NCBI GenBank assembly: GCA_963722255.1
Contig: CAVRJO010000002.1
Coordinates: forward strand, 128,001 to 192,000
Direction of reading: 5' to 3'
Origin: Candidatus Babeliales bacterium
Lineage (GTDB): Bacteria; Babelota; Babeliae; Babelales; JANWKD01
DNA: 64,000 nucleotides
Within the stretch, counting starts at the first letter, position 1; every line of letters begins with the position of its first letter. Shown one piece after another: positions 9,105 to 62,693 of the stretch. Both the position numbers and the translations under genes were made by a program. The notes beneath the pieces are model-generated. The model saw only the letters and a list, made by a program, of their open reading frames with translations. It made no database searches and was not told the DNA's origin.

Positions 9105-9151
9105 CCAGTCGTAGTTTGCCGAGCCGGAAGGCCCGGATAAACGAAGACTGG
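9105..9151 (-). repeat. tRNA-CCA-anchored hairpin element (copy at tRNA-Leu UAA)
   Basis: tRNA strand reads CCAGTC-TTC-GTTT...AAAC-TAC-GACTGG; closely similar to 37737-37786 in inverted orientation. Confidence 0.75.
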
Positions 9152-9235
9152 TGCCGAGGGCCGGACTCGAACCGGCACGAAGAAACCTTCGAAGGATTTT
9201 AAGTCCTTTGCGTCTACCTATTCCGCCACCCCGGC
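9149..9235 (-). tRNA. tRNA-Leu(UAA)
   Basis: GCCGGGGTGGCGGAATAGGTAGACGC...CT-TAA-AA...long variable arm...GGTTCGAGTCC...CACCA. Confidence 0.95.
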
Positions 9236-9269
9236 TTTAATTAATTCAAAGAAAAAATGGAAATAAATC

Positions 9270-9343
9270 TGGAGGCGGCACCCGGATTTGAACCGGGGAT
9301 CACGGATTTGCAGTCCATTGCCTTACCACTTGGCTATGCCGCC
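9270..9343 (-). tRNA. tRNA-Cys(GCA)
   Basis: GGCGGCATAGCCAAGTGGTAAGGC...CT-GCA-AA...GGTTCAAATCC...CTCCA. Confidence 0.95.
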
Positions 9344-9376
9344 ATTAACCTTCTGCAGATTATAGTAACACGATTG

Positions 9377-9877
9377 TTAATGAATCGCAAATTCTTCAAT
9401 CTTTTTCTTTAAATCTTCAACAGAAATTACAGCAACCGATTTCTTTTCAGCATACATTTCAGGCTTTTGATAGTTCACTAAATATGATTGTTGACATGCC
9501 CCAACAACAGAAATGCCAAACTGTTTTGCTTCCGCTGTTCCTCCCTCAAAAGCCCATACACGCTTAAATCCAAGCTTTGTTAACATTGTATAACCATCTC
9601 CACTTGCTGTGCATAAATAGTTGCTACAATGAAGAACAATTTCTGTTGTATCTTTATTCCAACGCTTTAATGCATATTCTTTTAAATCCATAAAGGGTAC
9701 ATTGATTGAGCCTTGAATATGACAATCATCAAATGATTCTTTATCAAGAACATTTACAATAACAAACTTTGGTGTTGTTGCTTGGCCACCAACAAAACGC
9801 TCACAACTACATGCAGATAATGCAATCATTATGATAACATTTATAATTGCTAAAAAAAATCGAACAAACATCATCAT
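9377..9877 (-). CDS. Rhodanese-like domain (lipo)protein
   Basis: HIQGSINVP, IVLHC, LGFKRVWAFEGG; lipobox-like LSAC. Confidence 0.8.
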   Translation of the reverse strand: MMMFVRFFLAIINVIIMIALSACSCERFVGGQATTPKFVIVNVLDKESFDDCHIQGSINVPFMDLKEYALKRWNKDTTEIVLHCSNYLCTASGDGYTMLTKLGFKRVWAFEGGTAEAKQFGISVVGACQQSYLVNYQKPEMYAEKKSVAVISVEDLKKKIEEFAIH

Positions 9878-9880
9878 TTC

Positions 9881-10756
9881 CTAATAAACAAATTGAAAGA
9901 ATCTACTCCAACGAACACGCTTCCAGAAATCAATTGGATGCTTCAAAAGGTCAAAAATAAACCATGATTCATTGCTATCAATTGACCATAGACGTATAAG
10001 AATTTTTCCATGAATCAATTTTGTAGCAAGCGGGCCCCAATAACGTGAATCAAGGCTGCCTTTTCTATTATCTCCCATTGCCCATACTTGATCAGGACCA
10101 AGATGAACATCATACTCATCAATATTGTGATTATCATCAATAGTCGGCGTATACGGCATTCGCTTCCATTCTATTCCATAACGTTCCATTATTTTTTTAG
10201 CTAATTCAACATCAGCTGCAGTCATTTGATAATAAGGTTGATCTTCAAATGATTTCGATTCATCATAAGAACGTGTATACCACGGTGGCATTTTTCCTTC
10301 AGCATAAACTCCAATAAGAGGATTTTTATTTACATACGGCTCATCAAGCTTTTGACCGTTTCTATAGACTACGGGTTTACCATCTTCAATCTTGCCTTGA
10401 ATATGATCGCCAGGAAGTCCAATAAGACGTTTCGTCCAATTTGAAGGCCCCCAAACATACTGTTGGAAAAGTTCCATAAAATAGTTGTTTGAATAAGCAT
10501 ATGTCGGATCATTGAAGGTAATAATATCTCCATGCTTCAATGGCGTGAAAAGAACTGTAAACTTATCGGCAAAAAAACGCTCACCAACTAGCATTGTTGT
10601 TTCCATTGAGCCAGTCGGTACTTGATATAATCCATAAAAATAGGTTCTTATAACAAATGCCAAAGGAACAACCACAACAAAAGTTTCTATATATTGCGCT
10701 ATCGTTGACTTATTCGGTCTTCTTACCCATGTCCAAAATCTATGCAGTGCATTCAT
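9881..10756 (-). CDS. lepB: Signal peptidase I
   Basis: VPTGSMETT, KRLIGLPGD, MGDNRKGSLDSRYWG. Confidence 0.93.
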   Translation of the reverse strand: MNALHRFWTWVRRPNKSTIAQYIETFVVVVPLAFVIRTYFYGLYQVPTGSMETTMLVGERFFADKFTVLFTPLKHGDIITFNDPTYAYSNNYFMELFQQYVWGPSNWTKRLIGLPGDHIQGKIEDGKPVVYRNGQKLDEPYVNKNPLIGVYAEGKMPPWYTRSYDESKSFEDQPYYQMTAADVELAKKIMERYGIEWKRMPYTPTIDDNHNIDEYDVHLGPDQVWAMGDNRKGSLDSRYWGPLATKLIHGKILIRLWSIDSNESWFIFDLLKHPIDFWKRVRWSRFFQFVY

Positions 10757-10791
10757 ACATGTTCTTTCGATTATAAAAAATAAATAAATAA

Positions 10792-11679
10792 TTATCTTAA
10801 AATATACAGAGGATTTATTCTCTTGCCAAATAAATCTATCACTTCAAAATGCAAATGCGATGCATCATGCTTTCCACGAACCAATCCCGTTGCACCAACA
10901 CATCCAATTTGTTTTGATACGGTAACTTTTTGACCAACTTTTACCAATATTTCATCAAGATGTGCATAGCGTGTTTTACAATTTTTATGACTTACTACAA
11001 TCGATTTGCCATATCCCTTTGGTGTGTAAGAAACTTCAACCACTGTTCCATCAGCTGCTGGATATATGGGTGTTCCTTTTAAAGCTGCCATATCAATTCC
11101 ATAGTGAAATCTTTTTTTTCGCGGGCCAAAATGTGAACTAATCCAAAACTGTTTTTTATTAATGGGCCATGCCAAAGAAAAATCATACAGATACTTAGGA
11201 ATGAAGGTGTTTCTTTTGGTAAGGCGAGTGCTGCCTCTTTGATTCAGTTGTGGCTTGGGTTTAAGGCAATTGCGAATAACGGAAGAATAGTTTGTATCCC
11301 ATCTACCTCCTTCGTACAAAGGCTTAACAACTTTTTCAAGATTATGTGCTTTTCCAAATCCGAGTGCGGCATTGCGTAAATAAAGCACTTCGCGATTTAC
11401 AGGATTCAATCTAGCTTCTGAACTATCATCAATCCATGTATCATCAAAAGAGTCTTCTTCTGAATCAGTATCATGCAAGAGTGATCTCTTTAAAAAATTG
11501 ATCTGTTTTAATGAATAAAGATAGTCTTGATAATCTTTCTGCAACTCCAACATACGCAAAGCTTGCTGTTTAAAAAATCGGTATTCAACAAATAATGCAA
11601 CAGTTATAAGTGACATAATAAAAAATAATAGCCCACATAAAACAACAATGAGCGAACAGGCGGATTCTTTAATTTTCAT
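10792..11679 (-). CDS. M23-family metallopeptidase with N-terminal TM
   Basis: HYGID, TRYAHL, HLHFEV. Confidence 0.9.
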   Translation of the reverse strand: MKIKESACSLIVVLCGLLFFIMSLITVALFVEYRFFKQQALRMLELQKDYQDYLYSLKQINFLKRSLLHDTDSEEDSFDDTWIDDSSEARLNPVNREVLYLRNAALGFGKAHNLEKVVKPLYEGGRWDTNYSSVIRNCLKPKPQLNQRGSTRLTKRNTFIPKYLYDFSLAWPINKKQFWISSHFGPRKKRFHYGIDMAALKGTPIYPAADGTVVEVSYTPKGYGKSIVVSHKNCKTRYAHLDEILVKVGQKVTVSKQIGCVGATGLVRGKHDASHLHFEVIDLFGKRINPLYILR

Positions 11680-11692
11680 TTCATATGCATAG

Positions 11693-12412
11693 TTAAATTA
11701 TAATAATGTTATCCTCTAAAATCCACCCAGTGGCTTCATTTGTTGCTACTTTTACCCATTTACCTTGCTTCTCATACACTCTTATTTCTTCACCTTTTAT
11801 AAGTGTTGCCAATTTTGAAAAACGCTCATCAGTACCAGCAACAAGAGATGTTTCTTGAGCTACAATAGCATTTTTTTTCGAAAGACCCCAATGCTTAATT
11901 CCTAAACTGCTTGTTGCAATGCACAGCAGAATAAGGAATGTCCCCACCACGAATTTATATTTTTTTGTATCAAAAAATAGTATCACTATACACACTGTTA
12001 TAAGTATCACAAGAACAAGCAATTGCCAGCAGAATAGTGAATAGTTCATAATACCACGAAATAAAGGTTCATACCAACCATTACATTCACGAATTCCCAA
12101 AATCTCTTGAACATGTTTAGAATTAGATTCCACATCAGCATACCAAGCAGAGCGACCGTTTGCTAACGAACGCTTCCAACATACAAGAGCCTCAGGATAT
12201 CGTTCTAAATGATAATAACAGTTACCAAGATTATACCACACTGCTGCACCCTTATTATCAATTGATTCATAAAGCCTCTGTGCTGCATCATAATCACCGT
12301 GAGCATACAGACTATTAGCATGCAAAAATTTTTCTTGTGTTGTAGCTAAAGAAAGATGGCCTATTCCAAAAAAGCTGAAAATAAAAAAGGAAAAAAGATG
12401 CCATTTCTTCAT
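11693..12412 (-). CDS. batE: BatE-like TPR/TM/SH3b protein
   Basis: TPR YNLGNCYY, two TMs, C-terminal SH3b-like W..V...GWI; last gene of the bat cluster. Confidence 0.75.
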   Translation of the reverse strand: MKKWHLFSFFIFSFFGIGHLSLATTQEKFLHANSLYAHGDYDAAQRLYESIDNKGAAVWYNLGNCYYHLERYPEALVCWKRSLANGRSAWYADVESNSKHVQEILGIRECNGWYEPLFRGIMNYSLFCWQLLVLVILITVCIVILFFDTKKYKFVVGTFLILLCIATSSLGIKHWGLSKKNAIVAQETSLVAGTDERFSKLATLIKGEEIRVYEKQGKWVKVATNEATGWILEDNIIII

Positions 12413-14127
12413 AATTTTTCCTCCAACTGGTTAATCCACATTAATGCGCGCTTGAAAAGATCATCAGGAACTTGCGTAATTGCTTGTCTTGAATATGCTA
12501 ATTCAGCTAACTGTAAAAAAAATCTATTCCATTGTTCAAGCGATTCTCGCACAAATCCTGCATCTTTAAGCCTCTCTTCAATGGTCTGTGCGGTAACTTG
12601 CGCCGGCAATAACTGACAACGATCTCTAAATAATTGACTAAAAACATCATAAAGCTGAACATAATTATTATGCTTTTTTAATTGAGCTAATTTTCTTCGT
12701 GTAAATTTAAAAGCATTTTTTCGTTTTTGAGCTAACCAATAATCTGAGCCAAGGCTTTGTAAATAGTTTTTAATACCAACAAAAAGTGTACCTCCTATGA
12801 TTATAAGCAGATAGAAAAAAAACCATCCTAATGGGATAGACCGTTCAGACGTATAAGTCCATGGGCCATCTGTTTTGAGAGGACCTATTTTTTCATTATC
12901 AAATAGTTCAATCGATGGATCATTTTCATTCTGCTGATCATATATTTTATTATTCTCTTTACCACCATTAATTTCCAAATGCACAGGATTTGTCTTGAGT
13001 TGTTTATAAGTTCGCACATAGGGGTCAAAAAAATTATAAACTTGTGAACTAATTTCAAAATTACTATCTTGGGTAGCTTGTATAATATACTCACAAGATT
13101 TTTTATATAAGCCATTTGATAATTTTTCTACTGATGCTTTTGAATCATAATATTTTAATCCAGCGGGAAGGCTCAATGGTGGTGGTAGAACATCGTCTAG
13201 ACCCTCTTTACCAATAATATCTAAAATAGCTACTATGCCTTCTCCCCTCATAGCGCTTTTTTGTTTACAGCGCAATGAAATCGAATCAAATAATCCAACG
13301 CCTAATAAATGATCCTTTGTTGGTGATAGCGGCAACGCAGCAACCTCTATTTCCATAGGATCATTAGTATAAAACCATGTATCTTGCGATCCATGCATTG
13401 AAAAACCAAATCCCCAGAGTCGCTGTTGTTTTTGGCTTTGCACCCTACATAACACGCCAATTTTTGGTATTATAAGTTTTCCGGTTTTTTTTACAAGTAA
13501 CGTGACGGGAATTTCATAACACGCATAATTTTTCCCATCAATTATTTGTGTTGTTTGTGTATGATTTGGTAACTGAACAAATTCTCCAACTTCAGGATCC
13601 AATGGTGGGATCTTAACATCAAGAAGTTGAGAATTTATGCAACTATTTATACGCAAGACGCCAGTGATACGTTGGCCAACCACTATTGATTTTTTAGCAA
13701 CTATAAGTTCTACAATAATATCCGATTGTTCTTGCTGTTCAACTTTAATCGTCAAAGCATTTGAAGTAAGCGTTACACCATTTTTGGTTACCAATTGTAC
13801 AGGTCCTAAAGAAAATGTACCGAGCTTATCAGCACGTATAACATAGGAATGAACCGTTGTAATATGTGACATTAGATTTAAATGGCTTGCGCCACAAAAT
13901 TCGCTATGGAAATTTTCTAATCCGGGAATAGTGCACTTGTAAAGATCTTGAGCGCCTTCCGCTTTAATTTCCAAGGTATAAGGATGACCCAAAGATAATG
14001 TTGTAACAGCAGTATCATTAGTTCGATTTACAACACGTAGCTCTAATCGTGGTGCAGCATCAAGCAAACCGAAAAATCCAAAAACTATACCAATGATTTT
14101 ACGATAGTTACCAATTTTTATATCCAT
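12409..14127 (-). CDS. batD: BatD-family protein
   Basis: Signal peptide, repeated beta-sandwich segments, C-terminal TM; position in the batABCDE order. Confidence 0.75.
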   Translation of the reverse strand: MDIKIGNYRKIIGIVFGFFGLLDAAPRLELRVVNRTNDTAVTTLSLGHPYTLEIKAEGAQDLYKCTIPGLENFHSEFCGASHLNLMSHITTVHSYVIRADKLGTFSLGPVQLVTKNGVTLTSNALTIKVEQQEQSDIIVELIVAKKSIVVGQRITGVLRINSCINSQLLDVKIPPLDPEVGEFVQLPNHTQTTQIIDGKNYACYEIPVTLLVKKTGKLIIPKIGVLCRVQSQKQQRLWGFGFSMHGSQDTWFYTNDPMEIEVAALPLSPTKDHLLGVGLFDSISLRCKQKSAMRGEGIVAILDIIGKEGLDDVLPPPLSLPAGLKYYDSKASVEKLSNGLYKKSCEYIIQATQDSNFEISSQVYNFFDPYVRTYKQLKTNPVHLEINGGKENNKIYDQQNENDPSIELFDNEKIGPLKTDGPWTYTSERSIPLGWFFFYLLIIIGGTLFVGIKNYLQSLGSDYWLAQKRKNAFKFTRRKLAQLKKHNNYVQLYDVFSQLFRDRCQLLPAQVTAQTIEERLKDAGFVRESLEQWNRFFLQLAELAYSRQAITQVPDDLFKRALMWINQLEEKL

Positions 14128-15108
14128 TGCGCACCATCTCATTTTTTAACTTGTTTTGTAATAAAAACTTAGTCATGTGAGCATCTTCATTCTCAACTTC
14201 TTGCAATAATAAAGTTTCAGCATCTGCATCTTCTTCATCTGATTTTTTTCCTGTAAATTTTTTCTCTTGAGAAGCTTGTGCAGCTTCTTTTGAAGGCTTC
14301 GATCCACTAGAATTTTGTGTATCTTTTTTGCCCACATCTTTTTGTTGTCGTGGATCTTCTTTTTGTTTATGAGAATCTTCAGACTTTTTTTCATCATTTT
14401 GTTTTTGATCGCCTGGCTGCTGATCTTGCTGAGGATTATCCTTTTTTTGATTATCAGAATCTTTGCCGCCTTTATCATTTTTTTGATCATTTGAACCATT
14501 ATTCTTCGAATCATCCATTGGATCATTAGGATCTTTTTGATCACCACTCTTATCTTTCTGTTGATCAGAATCTTGTTGATCTTTTTGATCTTCTGATTTA
14601 TCATTTTTATCTTTTTTATCTTGTTGATCTTTTTGATCATTTTTCTCGTTTTTATTCTTATCTTGCTCTTGCTGCTTCTTTTGCTCTTCTTCCTGAATTC
14701 TTTTTTTAGTTGTTCAACCATCTTTTTTGCTTGTTCATGGTTAGGATTTTGTTTTAATACCGCTTCAAATTGATCAAGAGCTTTTTGCCATTCCTGCATT
14801 TTAACAAAACTATTTCCAAGATCATACAGCGCTTGCTCTTTTAACAATGGAGGCATCTCATCAACTTCTAATGATTTCTCAAAATATGCTTGCGCTTTTT
14901 CATATTCGCCTTTTTTGTAGGAAATTTTACCTAAATTGTAGAGGGCATCAGCAGCTTGCGGATTATCAGTCACGAGCGTATCAAAATAGTGCTGCGCAGT
15001 TTCAAGATCATTATTTTTATAAGCAGTAACTCCTTTATATGTAGTTATCATTGCATCAACAGAGGTAAACCAAACAATACTAATAATGGTTACTAAAATT
15101 CGTTTCAT
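14108..15108 (-). CDS. batC: BatC-like TPR protein with Q/D/K-rich tail, split by a -1 frameshift at an A7 run (14701-14707)
   Basis: TPRs (ALYNLG, ALYDLGN); adding one A joins them to the low-complexity tail ending in the Bat-typical KNW. Confidence 0.75.
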
Positions 15109-16112
15109 AAAAGCCACTCAATAATAAAACAAAGTAAACTAAGTGCAATACAATAATGATATTGTTCTTGTAATGATTGAACTTTTTTATCATCAAATCG
15201 TTCTTTTTCCATACGTTCAACATAGGAAACAACTTTTTTCAAATCTTGTAAATCACCGGTAGCTCGTACATATAAACCGCCTAATGAAGATGCCAAGCTC
15301 GATAAAATTCCCTCATTCAAACTTGAAATTACAACAGCGCCTTTCTCATCCATTTGATAGCCGGATTTATTTCCTTGCTCATCGATAAGAGGAATTGGCG
15401 CTCCTTCAGGTGTTCCTATACCAATAGTAATAATTCGTAATCCCATTTTTTGAGCTTCTTGTTTAATACCGGATAAATTGCTAGAAAAATCTTCGCCATC
15501 GGTAAATACAACTAATACTTTGTTTTTCTTATGCTCTATTGTTTTAAACATATCTACAACTTTTTGAATAGCCGAATCTAATGCTGTTGTACCCGATGAC
15601 ATCGTTGTATAATCAATTTGATTTAAAAACATCTTGAATGCATCAAAATCTGAAGTTAAAGGACATTGAACAACTGAACTACCTGAAAATAACAATAACC
15701 CAACTCTTTCAGACCCGAGCATTGCAAGCAAATTAGAAATTTTTGATTTAGCAACGGTGAGTCTATTAGGGAAGATATCTTGTGCAAGCATGCTTTTTGA
15801 AATATCTAATGCAATAAAAAGATCCCTTCCCTCTTGTATAATCGGCTCCTCTTTTTTATCCCATTGTGGTTGCAAAAAAGCCAAAAATAAAAAGCTAAAA
15901 CCAAGGGTTAATGCCATTTGTTTAATAAACTGCTTGTGTGGACTATAATTCATCACAAGGAAAGATTGCCATTGTGGTGCTGCTAGCGTTGCAACCACGC
16001 GTTTTTTTGTAAGGTAATACCAGATAATAATGCCAATAACAACCATTAGGACGGGCAAGAAAAGTAGATTATTGGCTGAAGCAAATGTGATCCCAAAAAA
16101 TCTTGTTTTCAT
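15105..16112 (-). CDS. batB: BatB VWA-domain membrane protein
   Basis: MIDAS DISKS, PNRL, CPLTSD, TDGE, IGIGTPEGAPIP. Confidence 0.85.
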   Translation of the reverse strand: MKTRFFGITFASANNLLFLPVLMVVIGIIIWYYLTKKRVVATLAAPQWQSFLVMNYSPHKQFIKQMALTLGFSFLFLAFLQPQWDKKEEPIIQEGRDLFIALDISKSMLAQDIFPNRLTVAKSKISNLLAMLGSERVGLLLFSGSSVVQCPLTSDFDAFKMFLNQIDYTTMSSGTTALDSAIQKVVDMFKTIEHKKNKVLVVFTDGEDFSSNLSGIKQEAQKMGLRIITIGIGTPEGAPIPLIDEQGNKSGYQMDEKGAVVISSLNEGILSSLASSLGGLYVRATGDLQDLKKVVSYVERMEKERFDDKKVQSLQEQYHYCIALSLLCFIIEWLL

Positions 16113-17092: not shown

Positions 17093-17095
17093 AGA

Positions 17096-18651: not shown

Positions 18652-18720
18652 AGAAAATCCTAACTTGTATTAATAAAATGGCTTAAAATAGTAAAACTCT
18701 AGGCCAATTTATAAAAATAT

Positions 18721-18750
18721 TTGACATTTTGAAAATATTTATTTTATTAT
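18721..18750 (+). promoter_or_regulatory. Candidate sigma70 promoter of topA
   Basis: TTGACA-18 nt-TATTAT upstream of topA. Confidence 0.5.
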
Positions 18751-18847
18751 TAAGTACAAATGAGAGTACTTTGGTACTATACCATTGCATATTACCGTAA
18801 AACCATTATTATTTATAGAAATTTCTTGTATATAGTAAAGATATCAT

Positions 18848-22335: not shown

Positions 22336-22393
22336 ATGAATTCATCCTTCGTATATTTTTAAGAACTACAATCGACTACAATTTCATGCTACC

Positions 22394-37736: not shown

Positions 37737-37865
37737 GTCCAGCCTTCGTTTATCCGGGTCTTCAGACTCGGCAAACTTCGGCGGACAGCCTACTTCAATT
37801 TTCTATTAATATATTTCAATCCATTTGAAAATGGTGTAGCCAGCCGAAGCCTTGGCGTAGGCTGG
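37737..37865. repeat. Inverted hairpin doublet anchored on the CCA of tRNA-Leu(UAG)
   Basis: 37840-37865 reads CCAGCC-TAC-GCCAAGGC-TTC-GGCTGG on the tRNA strand; opposite-orientation copy at 37737-37786. Confidence 0.75.
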
Positions 37866-37949
37866 TGCAAGAGAAGGGACTCGAACCCCCACTCCCTTTC
37901 GGGAACTGGATCCTAAGTCCAGCGCGTCTACCAATTCCGCCACTCTTGC
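37863..37949 (-). tRNA. tRNA-Leu(UAG)
   Basis: GCAAGAGTGGCGGAATTGGTAGACGC...CT-TAG-GA...GGTTCGAGTCC...CACCA. Confidence 0.95.
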
Positions 37950-37972
37950 GTAATTCATTTCAAAGATTCGTT

Positions 37973-38146
37973 CCTACTTCGCTCCTTCGAGCTACAGGCT
38001 TTTCAAGTAGTCCATTCTTCGCTTTTAGCGTAAAACTTCGAAGTCTTATAAAGCTACGAAGGACAATCTTCGCTCCTTTTGTTGGCGTCAGCCAATCGTA
38101 GCCGTAGGTCCACTTCGTAGTAGCAACCCACGTAGGCGAAGATTGG
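37973..38146. repeat. Hairpin cluster anchored on the CCA of tRNA-Lys
   Basis: 38092-38146 reads CCAATC-TTC-GCC...GGC-TAC-GATTGG on the tRNA strand; opposite copies at 38010-38064 and 37973-37998. Confidence 0.7.
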
Positions 38147-38219
38147 TGGGCCGCATTGGAATCGAACCAATAACCTGCAGATTAAGAGTCTGTCGCTCTA
38201 CCAATTGAGCTAGCAGCCC
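38144..38219 (-). tRNA. tRNA-Lys(CUU)
   Basis: GGGCTGCTAGCTCAATTGGTAGAGC...CT-CTT-AA...GGTTCGATTCC...CACCA. Confidence 0.95.
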
Positions 38220-49803: not shown

Positions 49804-49879
49804 CGCTAATTCTCAAGAACTCCTGCTTAACTCAAGATTATTTGTCTTGCATTTTGAACTGCAGTAATCATAAATAGTA

Positions 49880-50144: not shown

Positions 50145-50335
50145 GTATCTAGTAACTCTAAAAAACCTACCGTGCAAAATTTTTGTTATAGAATTTCATA
50201 GCATTCAAGAATTAAAACTTAATAAAAAAATAAGTTGCCACTAGAAAAAATATTATTCTATAGTATTGCCTTGTTTGGCAAAAATATGGTTTTATTTTGA
50301 TGGGATTTAATTTTAAATAAAACTTAGGGGTAGTT

Positions 50336-52717: not shown

Positions 52718-52871
52718 AAAGATGTAAACATTTACTTACCTGTAATGGTATTATCAATGTTTATAATTGCCACTAGAAAAAAAAATTACTCCATAGTATT
52801 GCCTTGTTTGGCAAAAATATGGTTTTATTTTTGATGGGATTTATTTTTAAATAAAACTTAGGGGTAGGTTT

Positions 52872-55800: not shown

Positions 55801-57071
55801 TTACTTTAGATCTTTGTAATCGCTCTATAACAGGACTAGCGGGTAATGCAACGTCAGGTGTCTTTATAAATACTACCACAAATGTTACCGTAAAAAATGG
55901 TACTATTGAAAATGTCTCAGTCTCGGGTATTGTTGTTAATGGTCAATCAACAGATATACTACTCGATCATGTAACAACTCTTAGTTGTGGAATATTTGGG
56001 ATACAATTTGGCACAGCTGCAACTAATGCACTTCCAAACTCTAATATAATAGGCGATTGTCGTGTTCTATATTGTTCAGCACTATTTTGCGGTCAAGCTA
56101 CACAATCAAATCCAACAGCAGGCCTTTTTGCCTTTAATTGTACAGACCTCATTATTGATCAAGGCTTATTTAATAATAATGTAAGTTTAACTATTAATGG
56201 TATGTTTCTTTCACAATGCTCAAACTGCACCGTAACCAATTCTTCCATGGATAATAATTCTGGCATTGGTGCTTTTAGTGAAGGTGTGGGATTACAAATC
56301 ATTACCCCTGGTGCAATAAGTTGTAACAATAACTATTTTGCTAATTGCACTTTTAATAACAACAGTGGAAATAGTTCTAATGGTAGTGCAATAGGAGTTA
56401 CTTCAAGTGGAGCAATAGCCAATGTTTACCTCAATTGCCAAGCAAACAATAATTCTGGCAGTACGGCTTTTGGTTTCTTTTTTCAAGATGGTAGTCAAAA
56501 TGTCTTTGAAAATGTAACAGCAAGTTTCAATACGGCTTTTGTTGGACAAGCTTATGGCTTTAATATTAGTGAAACTGCTGATCAATTTACTAACTGTACA
56601 GCTGCGACGAATTCAGGAGTGCTTGAGTGCGCAGGCTTCTATTATCAGGCTGGATCTCAAAATTTATGTCAATATTCTCAAGCAATAGACAATACCGCTA
56701 CATTTACCTGTGCCGGTATTATTTTACGCGCTGAAACAGCGAGTAATGTTGAAAACTGTACCCTAAAGGATAGTTTGGGCGCAAGCGGAATTTCATATGG
56801 TATATTATTAGACCAATTATCAAATACCTTCTGTCTCAATTGTTTTGTCCGTGCAAATAATCTTTCAAATAATAAATCCTTTGGAATAGCAGATACACAA
56901 AATCACAGCAGTACCTTTGTTGGAAGCAATTTTGCCTTTAACCAAACAACCAACTATAGCATTACCTATTTAGGTGCAACACTACCGGTTATTTCAGGAA
57001 GTTTTACTACAGGATTACCATCACCAACAGCATCGGGAGGAATCTTTGCTAATATTTCTATAAATCCTTAA
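52872..57071 (+). CDS. Long paralog of 50336-52717 with expanded 18/36-aa repeat stalk and beta-helix head
   Basis: Near-identical N-terminus and upstream DNA; same NISINP C-terminus; about 23 FNGTFT copies (hand count). Confidence 0.8.
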   Translation: MNRKSLSKKISFLILISLIFQPISIQSKQRISTEEPSSVFLSSTIKDPCIKNNSVHMSITPDNLMGIHLDELLKIVIEHALENHTFHELPPVIMDCYKQLQNGAQSINIQDLAQILPIAVEQLTSIMKTERAFRPDAPGNINGAPVGTSLECNLSEVLQLLNRLTHIVVQCCAMIQQDFNATWTILADIKDTITSDFNGTFTAIAAILTGSCDLSGVYTTLANLDTTVTSCCATIQNDFDFTWTILADIKQTITTDFNSTFTAIAAIVAGACDLNGVYTTLNAGFNATFTAIASIVAGSCDLSGVYTTLAHLNDTSTTCCTALQTDFNGTFTVLNGIAAALEAIPAALADIKQTITTDFNGTFTALNACCGNVNNTFTVLADIKQTITTDFNGTFTALNACCTNLANDFANTWTILADIKQTITNDFNGTFTAIAAINLNAENTFTVLADIKQTITTDFNGTFTALNACCTNLANDFANTWTILADIKQTITNDFNGTFTEFNGTFTAIAAINLSTVNTFTVLADIKQTITTDFNGTFTALNACCINLSNDFANTWTILADIKQTITNDFDGTFTAIAAINLTAVNTFTVLADIKQTITNDFNGTFTALNACCTNITNEFNGTFTALADIKQTITNDFNGTFTAIAAINLNEVNTFTVLADIKQTITNDFNGTFTALNACCTNITNEFNGTFTALADIKQTITNDFNGTFTALNACCTNITNEFNGTFTALADIKQTITNDFNGTFTALNACCTNITNEFNGTFTALADIKQTITNDFNGTFTALNACCTNITNEFNGTFTALADIKQTITNDFNETFTAIAAINLSAVNTFTVLADIKQTITNDFNGTFTALNACCTNITNEFNGTFTALADIKQTITNDFNGTFTAIAALSLNAINTFTVLNDIKNTVSQDFINTWTILASLSSSCSMTPITQAKVNAAGGSFTISSPGNYFLEENISSSGLLGSGIIRINSNDVTLDLCNRSITGLAGNATSGVFINTTTNVTVKNGTIENVSVSGIVVNGQSTDILLDHVTTLSCGIFGIQFGTAATNALPNSNIIGDCRVLYCSALFCGQATQSNPTAGLFAFNCTDLIIDQGLFNNNVSLTINGMFLSQCSNCTVTNSSMDNNSGIGAFSEGVGLQIITPGAISCNNNYFANCTFNNNSGNSSNGSAIGVTSSGAIANVYLNCQANNNSGSTAFGFFFQDGSQNVFENVTASFNTAFVGQAYGFNISETADQFTNCTAATNSGVLECAGFYYQAGSQNLCQYSQAIDNTATFTCAGIILRAETASNVENCTLKDSLGASGISYGILLDQLSNTFCLNCFVRANNLSNNKSFGIADTQNHSSTFVGSNFAFNQTTNYSITYLGATLPVISGSFTTGLPSPTASGGIFANISINP
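53400..55640 (+). repeat. Coding tandem repeat array (54/108-bp modules)
   Basis: ADIKQTITNDFNGTFTAL / NACCTNITNEFNGTFTAL / AIAAINLxxxNTFTVL modules in mosaic order; boundaries approximate. Confidence 0.9.
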
Positions 57072-57086
57072 AAATCATTACTCTAT

Positions 57087-57123
57087 GGTATGCATAAGAA
57101 CCAACAATCTTATGCATACCTTT
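57087..57123. terminator. Hairpin terminator between convergent genes
   Basis: GGTATGCATAAGA-loop-TCTTATGCATACC-TTT. Confidence 0.7.
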
Positions 57124-58396
57124 AAAAGCACCACTCAATATCAATGCCAACTGATGCAACGGCCATAGTGGTATCAAAAATTCTCTTTCCCCCAATAATC
57201 CAATTATAGAAAAAGCCAATTCTTGGGCCAATATCTGAAGGTTCATGTGCAAAATCATATTCTAAAAACCAATGAATAACATGCATCTGCCAACTTCTAA
57301 AACGTTGATCACTATTTACAATTTCCGGAATAAAAATATTTGTAGTATCAGGTTTAATACAATCACGCTCTTTAAGAGTAAAACAATATCCAACCAAGAG
57401 CGAAAGACCCCTGAAAATATGATCAGCTTTAGTATACGCAGCAATATCCCAAATGGTACCTGGATCTACTAAAGCTTTTCCTGAGGTTAAAAAAATAAAA
57501 CCGTTTTGATCATGAGCAGTTTTCATTGCAATACATCGCGATCGATCAAATAAAAACAATGCACCAATATGAGCACCACATGTCAACCATTCCCAATAGC
57601 CCATAGAACAGTCAAATTTTAATGGCATACCATAAAATCCATCATATCCAAGGGGAAGATCAAAAGGATTACGCAATGATCGTTTTTTACCGGTGGGAAA
57701 TAATATCCCAAACTTTGCAGTAACATCATAATAATCAGCATAGGTTGTATCTTGATTATTAAAAGTCCAACCTGCTAACAAAGTTAAATCTCCTATTCCC
57801 ATTCTATGTACATTTGTTATCGATCGACCATAACGTGCTAAAATTTGTGAAAAATTGCCCAAAAATTGTATCCATTCTGGACTATTTTTATTTGGGACAA
57901 TAGTGTCTTCCGGAGACTTATCACAATATTGAATATTTTGTATGGTGAGACGTCGAATAGGAAGATAAAGTTGCAAAAAAAATCCGGAACACAAATTTTG
58001 ATAGCCATTTATTACTGCTTCGACAATAGAAAAATCTCCTTTAAAAAGCAGTTTCCCAAAATTATCACGGCAAGGCAGGTTGTTCAAATCAATAAGAATC
58101 CTATCCAGCTCATTTTGTTCATCGAGGCATGGTATATCAGCACCAAGATTTTGCATTGCATGCAAACCAAAAACATTAAGTAGAGCTGTCTTTTGACCAT
58201 TGCAGTTAAAAGCTTTTTTGGTGCTCCCTCCTGAAATGAGAAAATCCCAAGAGGTTAACCAATTTTTCTCAAACCTAGGTTCTCCCCAAAAAAAATTTGC
58301 TCTATAAAAATGAGGATTATCAATAGCAGTTGCAAAAGATATCGTTGCTAACCCAATAAATAAACATCGCATATAGTTGTAATGCTGCTTAATCAT
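57122..58396 (-). CDS. Putative outer-membrane beta-barrel protein
   Basis: Signal peptide, aromatic-rich alternating strands, GIGDLTL and ILFPTG motifs, C-terminal Phe (GIDIEWCF). Confidence 0.6.
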   Translation of the reverse strand: MIKQHYNYMRCLFIGLATISFATAIDNPHFYRANFFWGEPRFEKNWLTSWDFLISGGSTKKAFNCNGQKTALLNVFGLHAMQNLGADIPCLDEQNELDRILIDLNNLPCRDNFGKLLFKGDFSIVEAVINGYQNLCSGFFLQLYLPIRRLTIQNIQYCDKSPEDTIVPNKNSPEWIQFLGNFSQILARYGRSITNVHRMGIGDLTLLAGWTFNNQDTTYADYYDVTAKFGILFPTGKKRSLRNPFDLPLGYDGFYGMPLKFDCSMGYWEWLTCGAHIGALFLFDRSRCIAMKTAHDQNGFIFLTSGKALVDPGTIWDIAAYTKADHIFRGLSLLVGYCFTLKERDCIKPDTTNIFIPEIVNSDQRFRSWQMHVIHWFLEYDFAHEPSDIGPRIGFFYNWIIGGKRIFDTTMAVASVGIDIEWCF

Positions 58397-58554
58397 ACTG
58401 TATTCCTATACATTCTTTCACTCATTATGAGAGCATGAAAGGACAAAACCTTAATCATCAAGCATAATTGCTTGTCAGCCATGCTCAGTGTGTTATACTT
58501 TATTTAATACTTATACACTATAAATCATTATTCTAAGATCATAAAGGTTCAACC

Positions 58555-59067
58555 ATGGATACTATACAAGAACAAGCTCAATTTAACCAATCGTCTGAAC
58601 AAGAACAAAAGAATGACACTCTTCTACAGCAGTGCACAACCGAGCTACAAGAATTAAAAAATAGCTATGTTCACCTTATTGCAGATTTTGAGAATTTTAA
58701 ACGCAGGCAAGAAAAAGAACGGTTACAATGGAGCAGACTTGCTCAAATAGATATTATTGCACCATTATTGACTATTATTGATGATTTTGAACGTGCATTA
58801 GAACAAAAAGGAACTGCTGAAGCTTCCCAAAATTGGATCGCAGGATTTGAACTCATCTACAAAGAGCTTATAAAATATTTAGATAAAATAGGCATCAAAA
58901 AAATTGAAGTTAAGCCTCATGATCAATTTAATCCTGAATTACATGAATCGATTATGACGGAAAATGTTGATCAAACTCCCGATACTATTGTAAAGGTTCT
59001 TCAAAAAGGCTATATATTTAAAGACTATGTTATACGTCCGGCTAAAGTAAGTATTACTGCAGGCTAA
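58555..59067 (+). CDS. grpE: Nucleotide exchange factor GrpE
   Basis: ADFENFKRR, DDFERAL, FNPELHE, QKGY, IRPAKV. Confidence 0.95.
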   Translation: MDTIQEQAQFNQSSEQEQKNDTLLQQCTTELQELKNSYVHLIADFENFKRRQEKERLQWSRLAQIDIIAPLLTIIDDFERALEQKGTAEASQNWIAGFELIYKELIKYLDKIGIKKIEVKPHDQFNPELHESIMTENVDQTPDTIVKVLQKGYIFKDYVIRPAKVSITAG

Positions 59068-59074
59068 AAAGATA

Positions 59075-59779
59075 CTATTTATTCACCAAGCTTTTGTAAT
59101 ACTCAACCACATCTTCTGGATCTTCATGTACAGAAAGTGCTTTTCTATGAGCATCATTTTCTTGGCTCTTATACCACTTTTGTAATAACGATTGGTAGAA
59201 TGGTGTTTGATCTACCATACATTTTGCTAATGAACTAAAGGTGGTTACGGCGCCAATCTTTAATAAACGAAACTTCGTAGGCAAAGAAAAAAATGGCAAA
59301 CGAGCCGCTACCAAATTACAGGTACCAACGAGTCCCAAACCTAAACCACTATATGATTCCATACCTCTTTTAACATGATGATATAAAGCAAGATGTGCAA
59401 ACTCATGAAGAAATTCGTAGAGATTTATATAATCCGGTTTTTGATTACATAAGCGCTGATTAATCCATAGAGCATTTACCCAAGGTATAATAAAAATTGA
59501 GCCAAATCCCAATGCATGCTCAGTTCTTGAATTCATTTTTTTTACCGTAAATTTTTTCTTAATTCCCATTTTATTGCGTGCTATATCACTCATTAATTGA
59601 TAATGTGCAGTAGCACCTTCCTCTCCATAGGCCTTTGCATCTGCACTCAAAGAGTGAGGTAAATCAATCCAGCAGCTTGGAGAATTTGTTGATTTATTTG
59701 TTATCGTGCGCTCCATAGAATTAAGCGAACTGAATAGTATCATACTAACAAATAAAATTTTCCTACTCATTTTTTGCAT
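59075..59779 (-). CDS. Exported putative zinc metallopeptidase (HExxH, M48-like)
   Basis: Signal peptide ending LNS then ME; LHEFAH; downstream QENDAH. Confidence 0.6.
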   Translation of the reverse strand: MQKMSRKILFVSMILFSSLNSMERTITNKSTNSPSCWIDLPHSLSADAKAYGEEGATAHYQLMSDIARNKMGIKKKFTVKKMNSRTEHALGFGSIFIIPWVNALWINQRLCNQKPDYINLYEFLHEFAHLALYHHVKRGMESYSGLGLGLVGTCNLVAARLPFFSLPTKFRLLKIGAVTTFSSLAKCMVDQTPFYQSLLQKWYKSQENDAHRKALSVHEDPEDVVEYYKSLVNK

Positions 59780-59790
59780 TTTTTATCCTT

Positions 59791-60876
59791 TTATGCATTT
59801 CCTGATACAGCTTTTACGCGTTTACCACATTCAGCACGACATCTTGTTGCTTCCAAAGAACGTAATTCCATTTCTTTTACAGTAAGTTCTTTGCATTCAA
59901 AATTTTGATTCTCACATTGCTTAACACACAACGTATGATCTTTAATCGAAAAATTTTCTTTTAATTTTTCTTGTTTTTTAACCACTTGATTCATAAATTC
60001 CAGTTCATCTTCAGGCAAACCGGGAGCATCATTTAAATGGCTTAAAAATAGAGCTTTTTTTGCAAGATTTAATCGAGTAATACCAGTATCATGAAGTGCG
60101 GTGCTTTCTATCGCTGTAAATTTATGGTTTTGAACAATAGATTTTTCTAGAGGAGTTTGCGGAATAACCATTAAAGGCCCTACAAATGAGGTTGCCCAGC
60201 CCAATGCTTTAAAAACACCAGGACGTAATCTTTTTTTAACGTGCCCTATATTTTTTTTCACATGCACATCATCCCATGTTAATAAAGATGACAAGGATTC
60301 AAATGATTTTGCAGGTTCTATTTTTTGATCTGCCATTCGCTTCTTAGTTAGGTTTGCTTGGACAAAAAGTGTATAACTTGCTAATGCTACTAAGGATTCG
60401 CTCGCTATGACCATTTTTAAATCGGGATTGATAAGCTTTGCTTGTTCCACACCACAGGTTAACAAATATTCCTGTACTTCCTGAGGCTGCTTTTGTAAAA
60501 GTTCCTGATTAATCCATACCGTTTTTCTTCCAAAAAGATCCTTACTACCAAAAACATACGATCCATAGGTACCAAGTTTTTTTGCGGTTACTTCATTCAT
60601 CTGCTTAAACTGAATAGTCTTAACATTTTCACCTAATGATTCTGAATGCCTAGATTGTAGATCCGGATCAATAGCAATGGCACCATATTTTTTCATTTGT
60701 GCATTACGTGATGCAAGCACATGAATCGATTTTAAACGCTCAAAATATACTGACCATGATATTTGATTATAAAATCCAGCTTGCTTTTCACTTTCTTTGG
60801 GTAAATCCATAGCAAATTGATTGTACATGAAGAAAATAAGCGAAATAAATACAGAGGAACAAATTAATTTTTTCAT
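59791..60876 (-). CDS. Exported paralog of 59075-59779 lacking HExxH
   Basis: Shared K.MN...LG...F..WINQ.L...P...Y segment; signal peptide ending QFA then MD. Confidence 0.6.
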   Translation of the reverse strand: MKKLICSSVFISLIFFMYNQFAMDLPKESEKQAGFYNQISWSVYFERLKSIHVLASRNAQMKKYGAIAIDPDLQSRHSESLGENVKTIQFKQMNEVTAKKLGTYGSYVFGSKDLFGRKTVWINQELLQKQPQEVQEYLLTCGVEQAKLINPDLKMVIASESLVALASYTLFVQANLTKKRMADQKIEPAKSFESLSSLLTWDDVHVKKNIGHVKKRLRPGVFKALGWATSFVGPLMVIPQTPLEKSIVQNHKFTAIESTALHDTGITRLNLAKKALFLSHLNDAPGLPEDELEFMNQVVKKQEKLKENFSIKDHTLCVKQCENQNFECKELTVKEMELRSLEATRCRAECGKRVKAVSGNA

Positions 60877-60898
60877 AATAACCTTGCCATAGAATATA

Positions 60899-61862
60899 TA
60901 GCGACCCGCTTTAATTTCCGCACAAATGTGCTATACTATCCTTAAAATTTTAAAAAGGAGAAGCGAATGGCATTCAGTCTTGATTTAAGAGAACGAGTAA
61001 TAGGGGCAGTTGATGGTGGCATGCATATAGACGAGGCCGCTAAAATATTTGATGTCAGCAGAAGGGTAATTTATGAATGGTTAGAATTACGAAAAAAAAC
61101 TGGCGAGCTCAAACCAAAAACAGGTTATCAAAAAGGCCATAGCCACAAAATTACAGACTTGGAAAAATTCAAAGCATTTGCAAATTCTAATAAGCAATGT
61201 ACATCCCCACAAATGGTTATTAGATGGGAGCAACTTACAGGCGTGAAGGTCTCTGAAGACGTGATGCTACGGATGCTTAAAAAGATTGGTTTTACATCTA
61301 AAAAAAAACTTTTAGCTACGCCGAAGCAAATGCAAAAAAACGTGCCGATTTTTTAGAAGAAATTAAAGACATCGATCCAGCAAAAATCATTTACTCTGAT
61401 GAAACTGGAATTGACGATAATGAGGTCGTTCTTACTGGATGGGCACCACGCGGAGAACGTTGCCATGCGCAAAAAAAAGCTGAACGTAAAACACGTTATA
61501 ATATCACGGCAGCACTGAATTTAAATTTGTTGTTTGCGCCATTTTTGTTTGAAGGATATTCAAATTCTGCTGTTTATGAAACTTACGTAGAACAGGTTTT
61601 GGCTCCTGCGTTAGAACCTGGAATGGTACTTATAATTGACAATGCTAGCTTCCATAAATCTAAAAAAATAATTCAGCTTATCGAAGCCGCTTCGTGCAGA
61701 GTTATATTTTTACCCCCATATTCACCTGATTTTAACCCAATTGAGCATCATTGGACGGCTGTCAAAAATGCAATCAGAAAAGCTGCTGAAAATATTAAAG
61801 ATTTTTATGAAGCAGCTGTTTATGCATTGAGTGAAATGTGCGCGGCTTAACGAGGGGCGCTA
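60899..61862 (+). mobile_element. IS630-family insertion sequence, apparently intact
   Basis: Imperfect TIRs TAGCGACCCGCTTTAATTTCCGCACA / TAGCGCCCCTCGTTAAGCCGCGCACA, TA on both flanks, transposase inside. Confidence 0.9.
60967..61850 (+). CDS. IS630 transposase, HTH and DDE parts joined by a -1 frameshift at A9 (61300-61308)
   Basis: MAFSLDLRERV HTH; -1 frame is open from 61308 through YSDETG, IDNASFH, LPPYSPDFNPIE. Confidence 0.9.
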
Positions 61863-61951
61863 TAGAGTGTTAATAATATTATAATAGCACTAAATAAATA
61901 TTTGTCCAACAAGAGCTAATGTTTCTATTTGAAATTATTCCTCTGTGGTCT

Positions 61952-62539
61952 TTATATCAATGGTGAGTAAAGAACTGTATTACTAAATGATACATAATAG
62001 AGGTAGGCTGAGTATAAAGAAAAAAATAATGAACAGAATAATAGAATATGTTCAAGGGAAAAACCTAGAAAAAGTGAACTTCCCCAAAAACCATAATTTA
62101 AAATTGCAGAAACTATATAGAGCGATTGAAAAAAAGTTTTAATTTTACCAACCCATGATACAGGTATATCAAAATTCTGTTCTAATGCTAAAATTCGTAA
62201 ACCCATAATAAAAAATTCTCTGCCTATCAAAAGAATAGCCCAAAAGAAGAATAATCTTTGAAGCGCAACTAATGCTATGAGAGCAGAAAAGAAAAGAAAC
62301 TTATCTGCTAAAGGATCCAACGCTTTACCAATTATTGTTTCCTGATTATGTTTACGAGCCAAATAGCCATCAAAAAAATCAGTTAAACTTAAAATAATGA
62401 AAAAAAGTGCAAGCACACTATTTATCAGCATGTTATTATAGGGCAATAAATAGTAGATACCAAAAGGTAAAAAAAGGGGCGAAACAATAAGTCTTATTAG
62501 GGTTAATCGTAAAGGAATATTAAGAGCTTGTAGTTTCAT
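61952..62539 (-). CDS. pgsA: CDP-diacylglycerol--glycerol-3-phosphate 3-phosphatidyltransferase
   Basis: NIPLRLTLIR, TDFFDGYLAR, GKALDPLADK, REFFIMGLR, GKIKT. Confidence 0.88.
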   Translation of the reverse strand: MKLQALNIPLRLTLIRLIVSPLFLPFGIYYLLPYNNMLINSVLALFFIILSLTDFFDGYLARKHNQETIIGKALDPLADKFLFFSALIALVALQRLFFFWAILLIGREFFIMGLRILALEQNFDIPVSWVGKIKTFFQSLYIVSAILNYGFWGSSLFLGFSLEHILLFCSLFFSLYSAYLYYVSFSNTVLYSPLI

Positions 62540-62590
62540 AGTATATTAAAAACCATCTTAACGGGCCGTGCCAGGTATTTCCTTAACATT

Positions 62591-62693
62591 GCCCTACTGC
62601 GCCAAGGCTACGAAGGGCATACTTCACTATTAAATCCATTTGCCATTCCTTTAAAAAACTGGCTTGCCATACGAAGCTTCACGCGAAGTATGG
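62591..62693. repeat. Inverted hairpin doublet anchored on the CCA of tRNA-Met
   Basis: 62667-62693 reads CCATAC-TTC-GCGTGAAGC-TTC-GTATGG on the tRNA strand; degenerate opposite copy at 62591-62618. Confidence 0.7.

Follow-up and report, generated by a model that had tools for sequence, protein, structure and literature searches.

Hairpin leaders on the CCA ends of four tRNA genes

Four different tRNA genes in the window (the whole stretch of 64,000 nucleotides analyzed here, from a Candidatus Babeliales genome) continue from their encoded CCA straight into the same fold, which raises the question of what kind of element this fold represents. The initial annotation had offered two answers, a non-autonomous element targeted to tRNA 3' ends or a pre-tRNA trailer that sequesters the CCA and gates 3' maturation. 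All four hairpins were re-found with their fold on the tRNA strand, which is the minus strand throughout, each beginning within the encoded CCA.

In the first copy, the CCA (9151-9149) of tRNA-Leu(UAA) (9149..9235, detected by both ARAGORN and Rfam) provides the opening three bases of hairpin 1, which belongs to a subtype with a long inner arm (9105..9151), and a degenerate TGGC-n-GCCA tail follows (9097..9107). The leader beyond hairpin 1 is decayed in this copy, and a search of it for a third arm and a second hairpin found neither. The tRNA-Cys gene (9270..9343, minus strand, ARAGORN) carries no hairpin, as originally described, and is bare in all four genomes compared.

The remaining three genes were likewise located on the minus strand with ARAGORN. 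Downstream of tRNA-Leu(UAG) (37863..37949) we identified hairpin 1 (37840..37865), a TGGC-n-RCCA tail (37832..37842) whose TGG could pair with a second CCA, a third arm (37786..37794) whose reverse complement agrees with the left arm of hairpin 1 at 8/9 positions, and an inverted hairpin 2 (37739..37785) that places the GWA/GWA loop on the tRNA strand. The same order is found at tRNA-Lys(CUU) (38144..38219), with hairpin 1 at 38092..38146, a TGGC-n-GCCA tail at 38083..38094, a third arm complementary to the left arm at 9/9 positions (38064..38072) and an inverted hairpin 2 (38012..38063). It is also found at tRNA-Met(CAU) (62691..62767), where hairpin 1 (62667..62693) is followed by a TGGC-n-GCCA tail (62660..62669), a third arm matching at 8/9 positions (62618..62626) and an inverted hairpin 2 (62592..62617). 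The stretch between the two TWC motifs measures 29 (Leu-UAA), 8 (Leu-UAG), 37 (Lys) and 9 nt (Met), in agreement with the reported range of about 8 to about 37 nt for the inner arm.

The hairpin is thus present as annotated, but the actual element is longer. It is a leader of 100-140 nt that consists of hairpin 1, a TGGC-GCCA tail, a spacer, a reverse-complement third arm and the inverted hairpin 2, the paired inverted hairpins being found in three of the four window copies. The inner-arm module of 9105-9151 recurs at 37739-37785 and reads the other way with respect to tRNA transcription, consistent with a signal in DNA. The hairpin may be recognized by a protein, and its GWA/GWA loop could form sheared G-A pairs. 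Thermodynamic folding of tRNA plus 150 nt gave mixed states, singling out neither a strand nor a state.

A match to an already described Rfam or REP family had been named as a possible refutation. Rfam gave no match for the leader: at the gathering score only five tRNAs were detected in the window, only tRNA and tmRNA reached that score in 20 cassette and control loci searched at E 1, and seven non-tRNA hairpin loci yielded no family. A sub-threshold match to Rfam sX4 extends across the tRNA plus trailer at one locus (L019). A low-threshold ARAGORN run allowing introns produced noise.

Genome-wide occurrence and covariation

The 1.62-Mb genome was scanned for the pattern CCA-NNN-TWC-G..C-TWC-NNN-TGG, with at least 2/3 outer pairs required. 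The pattern occurs 17 times, compared with 0-1 times per shuffle in 10 block shuffles. Against a background of 37,571 CCA triplets in the genome, 15 of the 17 hairpins begin precisely at the CCA of a tRNA or tmRNA (13 of 36 tRNAs and both tmRNA CCAs), and the other two start in displaced tRNA ends; the suspected enrichment at tRNA CCA ends therefore holds genome-wide. By pattern, 17/36 tRNAs in this genome lack a hairpin of either type; hairpin leaders follow 19/36 tRNA genes here and 27/36 in the related genome G001. Hairpins are also seen between tRNAs within one cluster (Lys then Leu; Val, Asn, Asp).

The covariation that had been noted in the outer stem was upheld in a larger set of 89 distinct hairpins, in which the tested positions were left unconstrained by the pattern. 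Watson-Crick pairing is seen in 86/89 hairpins at the first variable pair (shuffle mean 27, maximum 40) and in 75/89 at the second (shuffle mean 25, maximum 40), although the hairpins are mutually related and these counts are not independent events. The mismatches at the two variable pairs (T-C 11, G-T 4, A-C 1) do not indicate a strand. The third arm complements the left arm at the dinucleotide in 50/53 cases and at the middle base of the loop in 52/53, so two folds are possible. The base 3' of TGG is C in 85/89 hairpins, regardless of the discriminator base.

A GIY-YIG nuclease gene shares the leader

The initial annotation had found no cognate enzyme in the window, and mentioned similar repeats beside small GIY-YIG genes in other bacteria. 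The first statement needs correction, since a cognate gene is present in the same genome, outside the window; the suggested link is supported here and recurs in other phyla. The genome (G000) contains four intact 80-aa GIY-YIG genes, each headed by the shared leader. The Lys-CUU leader agrees with the one heading the gene at G000:C2:577881 (122 matches in 137 nt), the Met leader that of the gene behind tRNA-Asp at G000:C1:185423 (92 in 110 nt), and the Leu-UAG leader that of the gene at G000:C1:460793 (101 in 129 nt). A complete cassette accordingly reads [tRNA]CCA, leader, and an 80-aa Slx1/UPF0213-like GIY-YIG gene. These matches favor the first of the two original options, and it is likely that the window hairpins are gene-less leader copies of a tRNA-end cassette that normally carries the 80-aa nuclease, and that they are DNA spread by this nuclease. 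The cassette itself is probably selfish DNA.

The 80-aa proteins carry PF01541 only, a single GIY-YIG domain of <150 aa, and each of the residues Y5, Y17, R27, H31 and E63 is conserved in 196-200 of the 201 proteins compared. Their best solved-structure matches are PDB 1ZG2 (E 2e-5), Slx1 chains and 1YWL. In the comparison with SegB-type homing endonucleases, TIGR01453 scores 18-19 bits for two of the four proteins (cut-off 56) and does not match the other two. Identity to the genome's own Ssn-like protein is 33% over 58 residues, and in a quick tree a long branch with support 100 parts the nucleases from three Ssn-like rows. With the Ssn-like protein taken as a putative proxy for the cd10448 clade, the nucleases stand apart from it and match Slx1/UPF0213 structures. 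In the same tree, which is poorly resolved (support of at least 95 on 8/105 inner branches), nuclease genes from the same tRNA site and host lineage tend to cluster, which suggests that movement of the gene itself is rare.

Across many phyla, the cassette gene follows a wide variety of tRNA and tmRNA ends. A same-strand tRNA or tmRNA lies within 450 nt upstream of 80/104 de-duplicated nuclease loci (24 RNA types), and a strict hairpin lies upstream of 70/104, whereas neither was found at any of 18 Ssn-like control loci. In the full set of 198 loci, a tRNA is adjacent in 133 and a hairpin stands on the CCA in 94; the metagenome set, in which 60 loci had at least 300 nt upstream, is weaker, with 45/80 tRNA-adjacent and 21/80 with a hairpin on the CCA. 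Ten loci on viral contigs encode distant relatives only. A second hairpin type (ATTTC..GAAAT) was considered as the mark of its own nuclease clade, which fits two loci, but L251 and L253 score at least as high against the main type, and the idea is not upheld; nor is it SRM, a pattern found in 0/25.

Among 31 genomes of the order, scored for the nuclease at E 1e-15, 16 have both nuclease and hairpin, one the nuclease only, four the hairpin only and 10 neither (Fisher p 3.5e-4, a value that is overstated because kin are not independent). The four genomes with hairpins but no nuclease match at this threshold include G014 (99% complete, 8 hairpins), G028 and G030.

Filled and empty sites among relatives

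Orthologous tRNA loci were compared in four genomes for empty sites, and such sites were found: of 36 loci, 13 are filled in all genomes, 18 are mixed and five are empty in all. For the window copies, orthologs of both Leu-UAG and Leu-UAA are bare in G003 and G004, the Leu-UAG ortholog of G001 carries another subtype, and the Met ortholog is bare in G001 and bears other subtypes in G003 and G004; being unrooted, the comparison is compatible with loss in G003/G004 as well as with gain in this genome. Where the ortholog is also filled (75 hairpins), the best same-genome paralog is closer in 64 cases and the ortholog in four, with seven ties (permutation, 0/2000 for genome labels and 283/2000 for ortholog labels). 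The hairpin subtype follows the genome rather than the tRNA, and is shared by unrelated tRNAs within a genome. Three single-copy tRNAs of this genome have no hairpin; a serine-recombinase gene follows each of them, and the hairpin is found 9-10 kb away on the displaced end.

The leaders might instead be old and cassette-borne but now homogenized by ordinary host gene conversion, with the nuclease playing no current part in the gene-less copies. The clustering of nuclease genes by tRNA site, albeit with weak tree support, and the hairpins kept in G014, G028 and G030 are consistent with this, as is a displaced Glu end in G004 that bears the main subtype of that genome, so that replacement may need only leader homology. 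We nevertheless regard it as rather improbable, as the filled/empty differences at 18/36 loci could not be created by conversion between filled sites, the hairpin pattern occurs in 0/10 nuclease-free "neither" genomes while the gene is present in 16/20 hairpin genomes, and the three-way covariation of the arms has been maintained.

The second of the original options, a trailer selected by the host to mask the CCA and to gate or protect 3' maturation, whose third arm and tail would offer an alternative fold that exposes the CCA, is unlikely. It agrees with a stem base formed by the CCA, with the complementarity of the third arm to the left arm, with a predicted pairing probability of about 0.8 for the Leu-UAA CCA (RNA folding) and with the 13 loci filled in all four genomes. 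As a required function, however, it is unsupported, given the 17/36 hairpin-free tRNAs, the same tRNAs bare in relatives, the island-interrupted single-copy tRNAs devoid of a hairpin and the 10/31 genomes with neither hairpin nor nuclease. A subtype that tracks the genome and not the tRNA, and the C after TGG irrespective of the discriminator base, also speak against it.

End duplications and a proposed mechanism

Behind the gene, an exact 16-19-nt copy of the cassette's own tRNA end was found in 6/130 tRNA-adjacent cassettes. The copied segment corresponds to about tRNA positions 58-76, and it begins at the base after the T-loop TTCG in four cases and one base later in one, involving five different tRNAs. 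No such duplication was detected in the other 124 cassettes or in any of the four window copies, and the proposed geometry of the cut is therefore based on a minority subtype, in which the second hairpin lies 3' of the gene.

Under the preferred reading of nuclease-spread, gene-less leaders, the hairpins would be the DNA recognition sites of the nuclease, with one GWA/GWA-loop hairpin per strand, and would be bound in single-stranded DNA. The nuclease, supplied in trans by the four intact genes, may cut the end of a tRNA gene near T-loop G57/A58 and at the CCA, and host repair would copy the leader or the whole cassette into the break. Such copying could both fill empty tRNA ends and overwrite existing leaders, leaving the tRNA intact because the insert begins after the CCA. 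Pairing of the CCA in the precursor RNA would then be a by-product tolerated by the host.

It is quite unlikely that the nuclease acts on RNA instead, recognizing the folded trailer and cutting the precursor at the CCA, which would tie tRNA supply to the cassette in the manner of an addiction system or of a domesticated processing function. The gene lies invariably on the tRNA strand just downstream in tRNA-adjacent loci and is therefore probably co-transcribed, and in Dunin-Horkawicz-type phylogenomics a fusion to a tRNA methyltransferase prompted the proposal that some Slx1-like domains of prokaryotes act on RNA (PMC1564403). However, Ssn, the nearest tested relative family, does not bind RNA (PMC11893778), hairpins remain in the near-complete G014 genome without a nuclease match, and the end duplications indicate a DNA event.

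We tentatively propose, as a bolder and clearly less certain extension, that an 80-residue nuclease with neither recombinase nor reverse transcriptase is guided by the fold of any tRNA or tmRNA gene end, cuts there in a stagger of 19 nt between T-loop and CCA, and inserts DNA with hairpin ends. The three covarying arms might form a two-state leader that builds a branched junction for Slx1-like cutting, and the whole might constitute a class of minimal, structure-targeted mobile elements with autonomous and non-autonomous members.

If the preferred reading of nuclease-spread leaders is true, widespread "GIY-YIG hypothetical" genes would be selfish cassettes for which tRNA and tmRNA ends serve as harmless places to land, and which seed hairpin leaders on as many as three quarters of the tRNA genes in a genome. 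They would be the second family, after Ssn, to pair a nuclease with hairpins, and would offer a defined target and a substrate of small size; transposase-free spread of small palindromic repeats would become testable. Island biology is touched as well, because serine-recombinase islands share the tRNA ends and push cassettes aside.

Comparison with known systems

REP/REPIN-RAYT systems combine inverted hairpin pairs, variable inner arms, one enzyme gene and many non-autonomous copies. That the window hairpins are REP elements of an HUH (RAYT/IS200-type) transposase, or ordinary intrinsic terminators, is very improbable and largely refuted by the gene association: there are T runs after some tails and 11 Y1 transposase matches in the genome, but none of these matches lies within the window and the gene after the leader is GIY-YIG, a terminator scan found nothing on the tRNA strand at hairpin 1 of Leu-UAG, Lys or Met and predicted a single weak site, with 5 pairs, at the tail of Leu-UAA, and hairpins lie between tRNAs of a single cluster. 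Inverted hairpin pairs are common to the cassette and the GTAG-/CGTC-tagged palindromes (PMC3733652), but the partner here is not an HUH tyrosine transposase and the terminal GTAG tag is absent. "GIY" does not occur in PMC3733652, where tRNA is mentioned in connection with synthetase and pseudouridine synthase genes.

A close parallel is Ssn with its NTS/SRM repeats (Chenal et al. 2025, PMC11893778), in which a single-domain small GIY-YIG gene likewise adjoins its own hairpin repeat, gene-less repeats are scattered in the genome as they are here, and a likeness to REP/RAYT is proposed. SsnA is described there as cutting single-stranded DNA at the flanking hairpin, and not RNA. Ssn differs in belonging to the other protein branch described above. 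The published degenerate SRM pattern matched 0/89 leaders and 0/104 flanks, a comparison of limited power given that only 2/18 Ssn-like control loci match. In addition, the cassette sits strictly on the tRNA/tmRNA CCA, while "tRNA" has no occurrence in the main text of the Ssn paper (PMC11893778).

Prokaryotic Slx1-like/UPF0213 stand-alone GIY-YIG proteins (PDB 1ZG2, 1YWL) share the minimal domain; a tRNA-end location or hairpin leader is not described for them in passages of PMC1564403. Nor did a search of openly accessible literature, main texts and listings, find a description of a tRNA-end GIY-YIG hairpin cassette.

Phage T4 SegB, free-standing in a tRNA cluster, is likewise a tRNA-linked GIY-YIG nuclease; its recognition site in tRNA genes includes the T-psi-C motif, and it cleaves phage DNA in double-stranded form and homes from one allelic phage region to another (PMC2330249). 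This T-psi-C motif is the start point of the end duplications observed here. Unlike SegB, the cassette encodes an 80-aa bare domain on bacterial chromosomes, has a hairpin leader and is accompanied by many gene-less copies on non-allelic tRNAs; the separate DNA-binding region of SegB-type homing endonucleases was not found in the 80-aa protein, which consists of the catalytic domain only. By analogy, the cassette would work like Ssn/SRM and SegB, yet it lacks the SRM pattern of the one and the separate DNA-binding region of the other. The clustering of the nuclease genes by tRNA site fits allelic homing, the gene-less copies nonetheless being located on non-allelic tRNAs.

Hairpins at tRNA ends

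All five tRNA genes in the window lie on the minus strand. The initial annotation described a common fold built directly onto the encoded CCA of four of them, and this fold was recovered for tRNA-Leu(UAA) (9105-9151), Leu(UAG) (37840-37865), Lys (38092-38146) and Met (62667-62693); tRNA-Cys carries no hairpin, as also stated there. The source genome (1.62 Mb, 34% G+C; contigs C1 and C2, with the window at C2:128001-192000) has 36 tRNA and 2 tmRNA genes. A genome-wide census with the pattern CCA-NNN-TWC-G..C-TWC-NNN-TGG yielded 17 copies, versus 0-1 in each of 10 shuffles. Of these, 13 start at the CCA of a tRNA, 2 at those of the tmRNAs and 2 at other places. Six further tRNAs (Arg(UCG), Phe, Val(UAC), Leu(CAA), Arg(ACG) and Ser(UGA)) and one other site (C1:74017) carry a second, loop-less type of hairpin that shares the CCA foot and the TGGC-GCCA tail. 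This type is the main one in the related genome G001 (16 tRNAs). The two tmRNA genes, both with the hairpin on their CCA, are 1.8 kb apart (C1:795232-795599 and 797383-797822), encode different tag peptides and are separated by a pair of unannotated ORFs, each about 200 aa long.

Leader anatomy and covariation

The hairpin is the opening part of a longer leader. Independently of the discriminator base, TGG is followed by C in 85 of the 89 distinct hairpins, and a second RCCA usually comes within a few bases. Beyond a spacer lies a third arm that reverse-complements the left arm of hairpin 1; next is hairpin 2, in inverted orientation, with TCC/CCC..GGA/GGG ends. Three window copies contain the complete leader, and the Leu(UAA) copy consists of hairpin 1 and a decayed tail only. 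An additional purine-loop hairpin-like stretch (window 37971-37995) is located 3' of the Lys hairpin 2, directly before tRNA-Leu(UAG).

The outer-stem covariation noted in the four window copies extends to the larger set: with the variable positions left free in the search pattern, 86/89 and 75/89 hairpins have a Watson-Crick combination at the first and the second outer pair (shuffle means 27 and 25), although all covariation counts given here overstate independence, as the sequences are kin. The third arm was detected in 53 of the 89 hairpins; in 50 of these its dinucleotide agrees with the left arm (shuffle mean 8.7, maximum 17; ten dinucleotide types). At the middle base of the left TWC it is complementary in 52, whereas within hairpin 1 the middle base of one loop shows no correlation with that of the other (TA 32, TT 30, AA 14, AT 9). 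The left arm thus has two partners, one across the 3x3 loop and one perfect. In DNA, loops of the GNA/GNA kind owe their stability to sheared G-A pairs.

The cognate GIY-YIG gene

The link to small GIY-YIG genes, mentioned for other bacteria in the initial annotation, is supported in this genome. Its six PF01541 matches comprise one long protein, four proteins of 80 aa, and one of 96 aa that resembles the known Ssn nucleases and has other repeats; the leader heads all four 80-aa genes. The best alignments of window leaders to three of these gene leaders match in 122/137 (Lys), 92/110 (Met) and 101/129 bases (Leu(UAG)), and the Leu(UAA) copy has no good match among the four. The 80-aa proteins show weak matches to UPF0213 and Slx1 structures, reach no NCBIfam cut-off, and have Babeliales/Dependentiae records as nearest named relatives, which probably places the genome in this order. 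The catalytic residues are kept in 196-200 of 201 aligned relatives, and an early stop is present in 9 of 197 loci.

We assembled 104 nuclease loci (80 from GTDB and 28 from relatives, two own loci excluded, minus four duplicates). A same-strand tRNA or tmRNA gene, of 24 RNA types in total, lies within 450 nt upstream in 80 of them; for 12 of the 104 the available upstream sequence was shorter than this. The hosts include Alphaproteobacteria, Nitrospirota, Verrucomicrobiota, Thermodesulfobacteriota and Patescibacteria-type records. Such adjacency was found at 0 of 18 loci of the Ssn-like control family. A metagenome set (second alignment) was weaker, with 45/80 loci tRNA-adjacent and 21/80 with a hairpin on the CCA; all loci together gave 133/198 and 94/198. 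Among 31 genomes of the order, 16 have gene and hairpin, one the gene only, four the hairpin only and ten neither; one hairpin-only genome is 64% complete, and another, G014, is 99% complete and holds 8 copies.

Turnover and putative insertion

In 36 tRNA loci compared among the source genome and its relatives G001, G003 and G004 (Ala-GGC, found in G004 only, was skipped), the CCA carries a hairpin in all genomes at 13 loci, in some at 18 and in none at 5; the mixed class is somewhat inflated by decayed copies missed by the pattern (e.g. Tyr in the source genome) and by island-displaced ends scored as empty. Clean empty sites were found in G003 and G004, where the CCA of Leu(UAG) directly adjoins the ribosome-binding site of the following gene (trigger factor in the window) and that of Leu(UAA) is followed by the HU promoter region. 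A filled ortholog was available for 75 of 83 hairpins; a same-genome paralog was closer in 64, the ortholog in 4, and 7 were ties. Near-identical pairs are enriched within genomes (0/2000 permutations) and not at orthologous tRNAs (283/2000). Leader sequences are thus renewed separately in each genome. The nuclease genes do not follow this; they cluster by lineage and tRNA site in a quick, poorly supported tree. That the hairpins are old relics, passively converted, is the alternative that fares best, and we consider it unlikely.

In 6 of 130 tRNA-adjacent cassettes, the terminal 16-19 bases of the cassette's own tRNA recur unchanged behind the gene; the remaining 124 match over at most 8 bases, the chance level. 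Four copies are of 19 nt, starting right after the T-loop TTCG, and one is of 18 nt (together on Arg, Val, Phe, Leu and Met); the 16-nt case, on Ser, is further off. Where similar leaders stand on different tRNAs, the copies differ, so that the copy comes from the target. In loci L052 and L248 the GGA end of the second hairpin adjoins the copy, which in L248 is followed by a different hairpin without a gene, as if the cassette had entered an occupied site. Three of the six cases also repeat the start of the cassette in tandem, and the window copies show no tRNA-end duplication. Tandem leader repeats were also observed at C2:577514-577820 and in the trailer of the G003 tRNA-Lys(CUU).

Probable displaced tRNA ends

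A serine-recombinase gene lies directly behind each of the hairpin-free tRNAs Arg(UCU), Arg(CCU) and Glu, intact (PF07508) behind both Arg tRNAs (C1:448629-450092 and C1:63844-65271) and degenerate behind tRNA-Glu (C2:568534-569624); similar genes stand behind tRNAs in G003 and G004. About 9-10 kb beyond each of the three, a short tRNA-end copy with a hairpin was found (C1:458132, a 10-nt exact match; C1:74017; C2:577514), and an additional cassette is located 2.5 kb past the first, at C1:460626. These off-tRNA hairpins may be the original tRNA ends, pushed away by islands that brought a bare replacement end, the Glu and Arg(CCU) matches being short. These three single-copy tRNAs therefore manage without the hairpin; a maturation trailer selected by the host seems a little less likely still than passive conversion of relics.

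Mechanism and relation to known systems

We suggest that the hairpins are probably DNA recognition sites of the nuclease. Leader anatomy, the nuclease association, the turnover and the occasional duplication are directly observed. By analogy with SsnA and SegB, the nuclease would recognise the purine-loop hairpins, one per strand, and cut at the end of the tRNA gene; a leader or cassette would then be copied into the break by host repair. SsnA cuts ssDNA at its own hairpin and cuts neither RNA nor dsDNA (PMC11893778), and SegB recognises the T-psi-C motif (PMC2330249). Folding does not discriminate between DNA recognition and the alternatives, and stem mismatches in the hairpin set indicate no particular strand. 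A nuclease that cuts RNA is very unlikely, and a terminator or a RAYT-type REP, whose RAYT enzyme is missing from the tRNA-end system, is the least probable reading.

The hairpin and nuclease would resemble the Ssn/SRM pair in how they work, but the SRM pattern occurs in 0/89 leaders (a weak test, since only 2/18 Ssn-like controls match), the 80-aa protein branches apart from the Ssn-like protein, and the extra domain of SegB is missing from it. Rfam holds no family for the leader, and a literature search confined to main articles and covering few subscription journals found no description of a tRNA-end GIY-YIG hairpin cassette. The tRNA-end hairpins are real. The window's own contribution lies in how they saturate the genome, in a turnover test that sets paralogs against orthologs, in their probable displacement by islands and in covariation among three arms.

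The 96-aa Ssn-like gene (C1:725297-725584) has inverted hairpin repeats on its flanks, which the published SRM pattern misses (0 matches in the genome), and relatives are present in 9 of the 31 genomes. Away from tRNAs, TCC..GGA-type hairpins also occur (C2:460775-460800, C2:498264-498289, C1:697457-697526, C1:572276 and C1:646013), in at least three cases nested in the loop of Ssn-like repeats, as if single hairpins enter other hairpins. IS200/IS605-type Y1 transposase matches were found at 11 places in the genome, all outside the window; several are near-identical and two contain stops.
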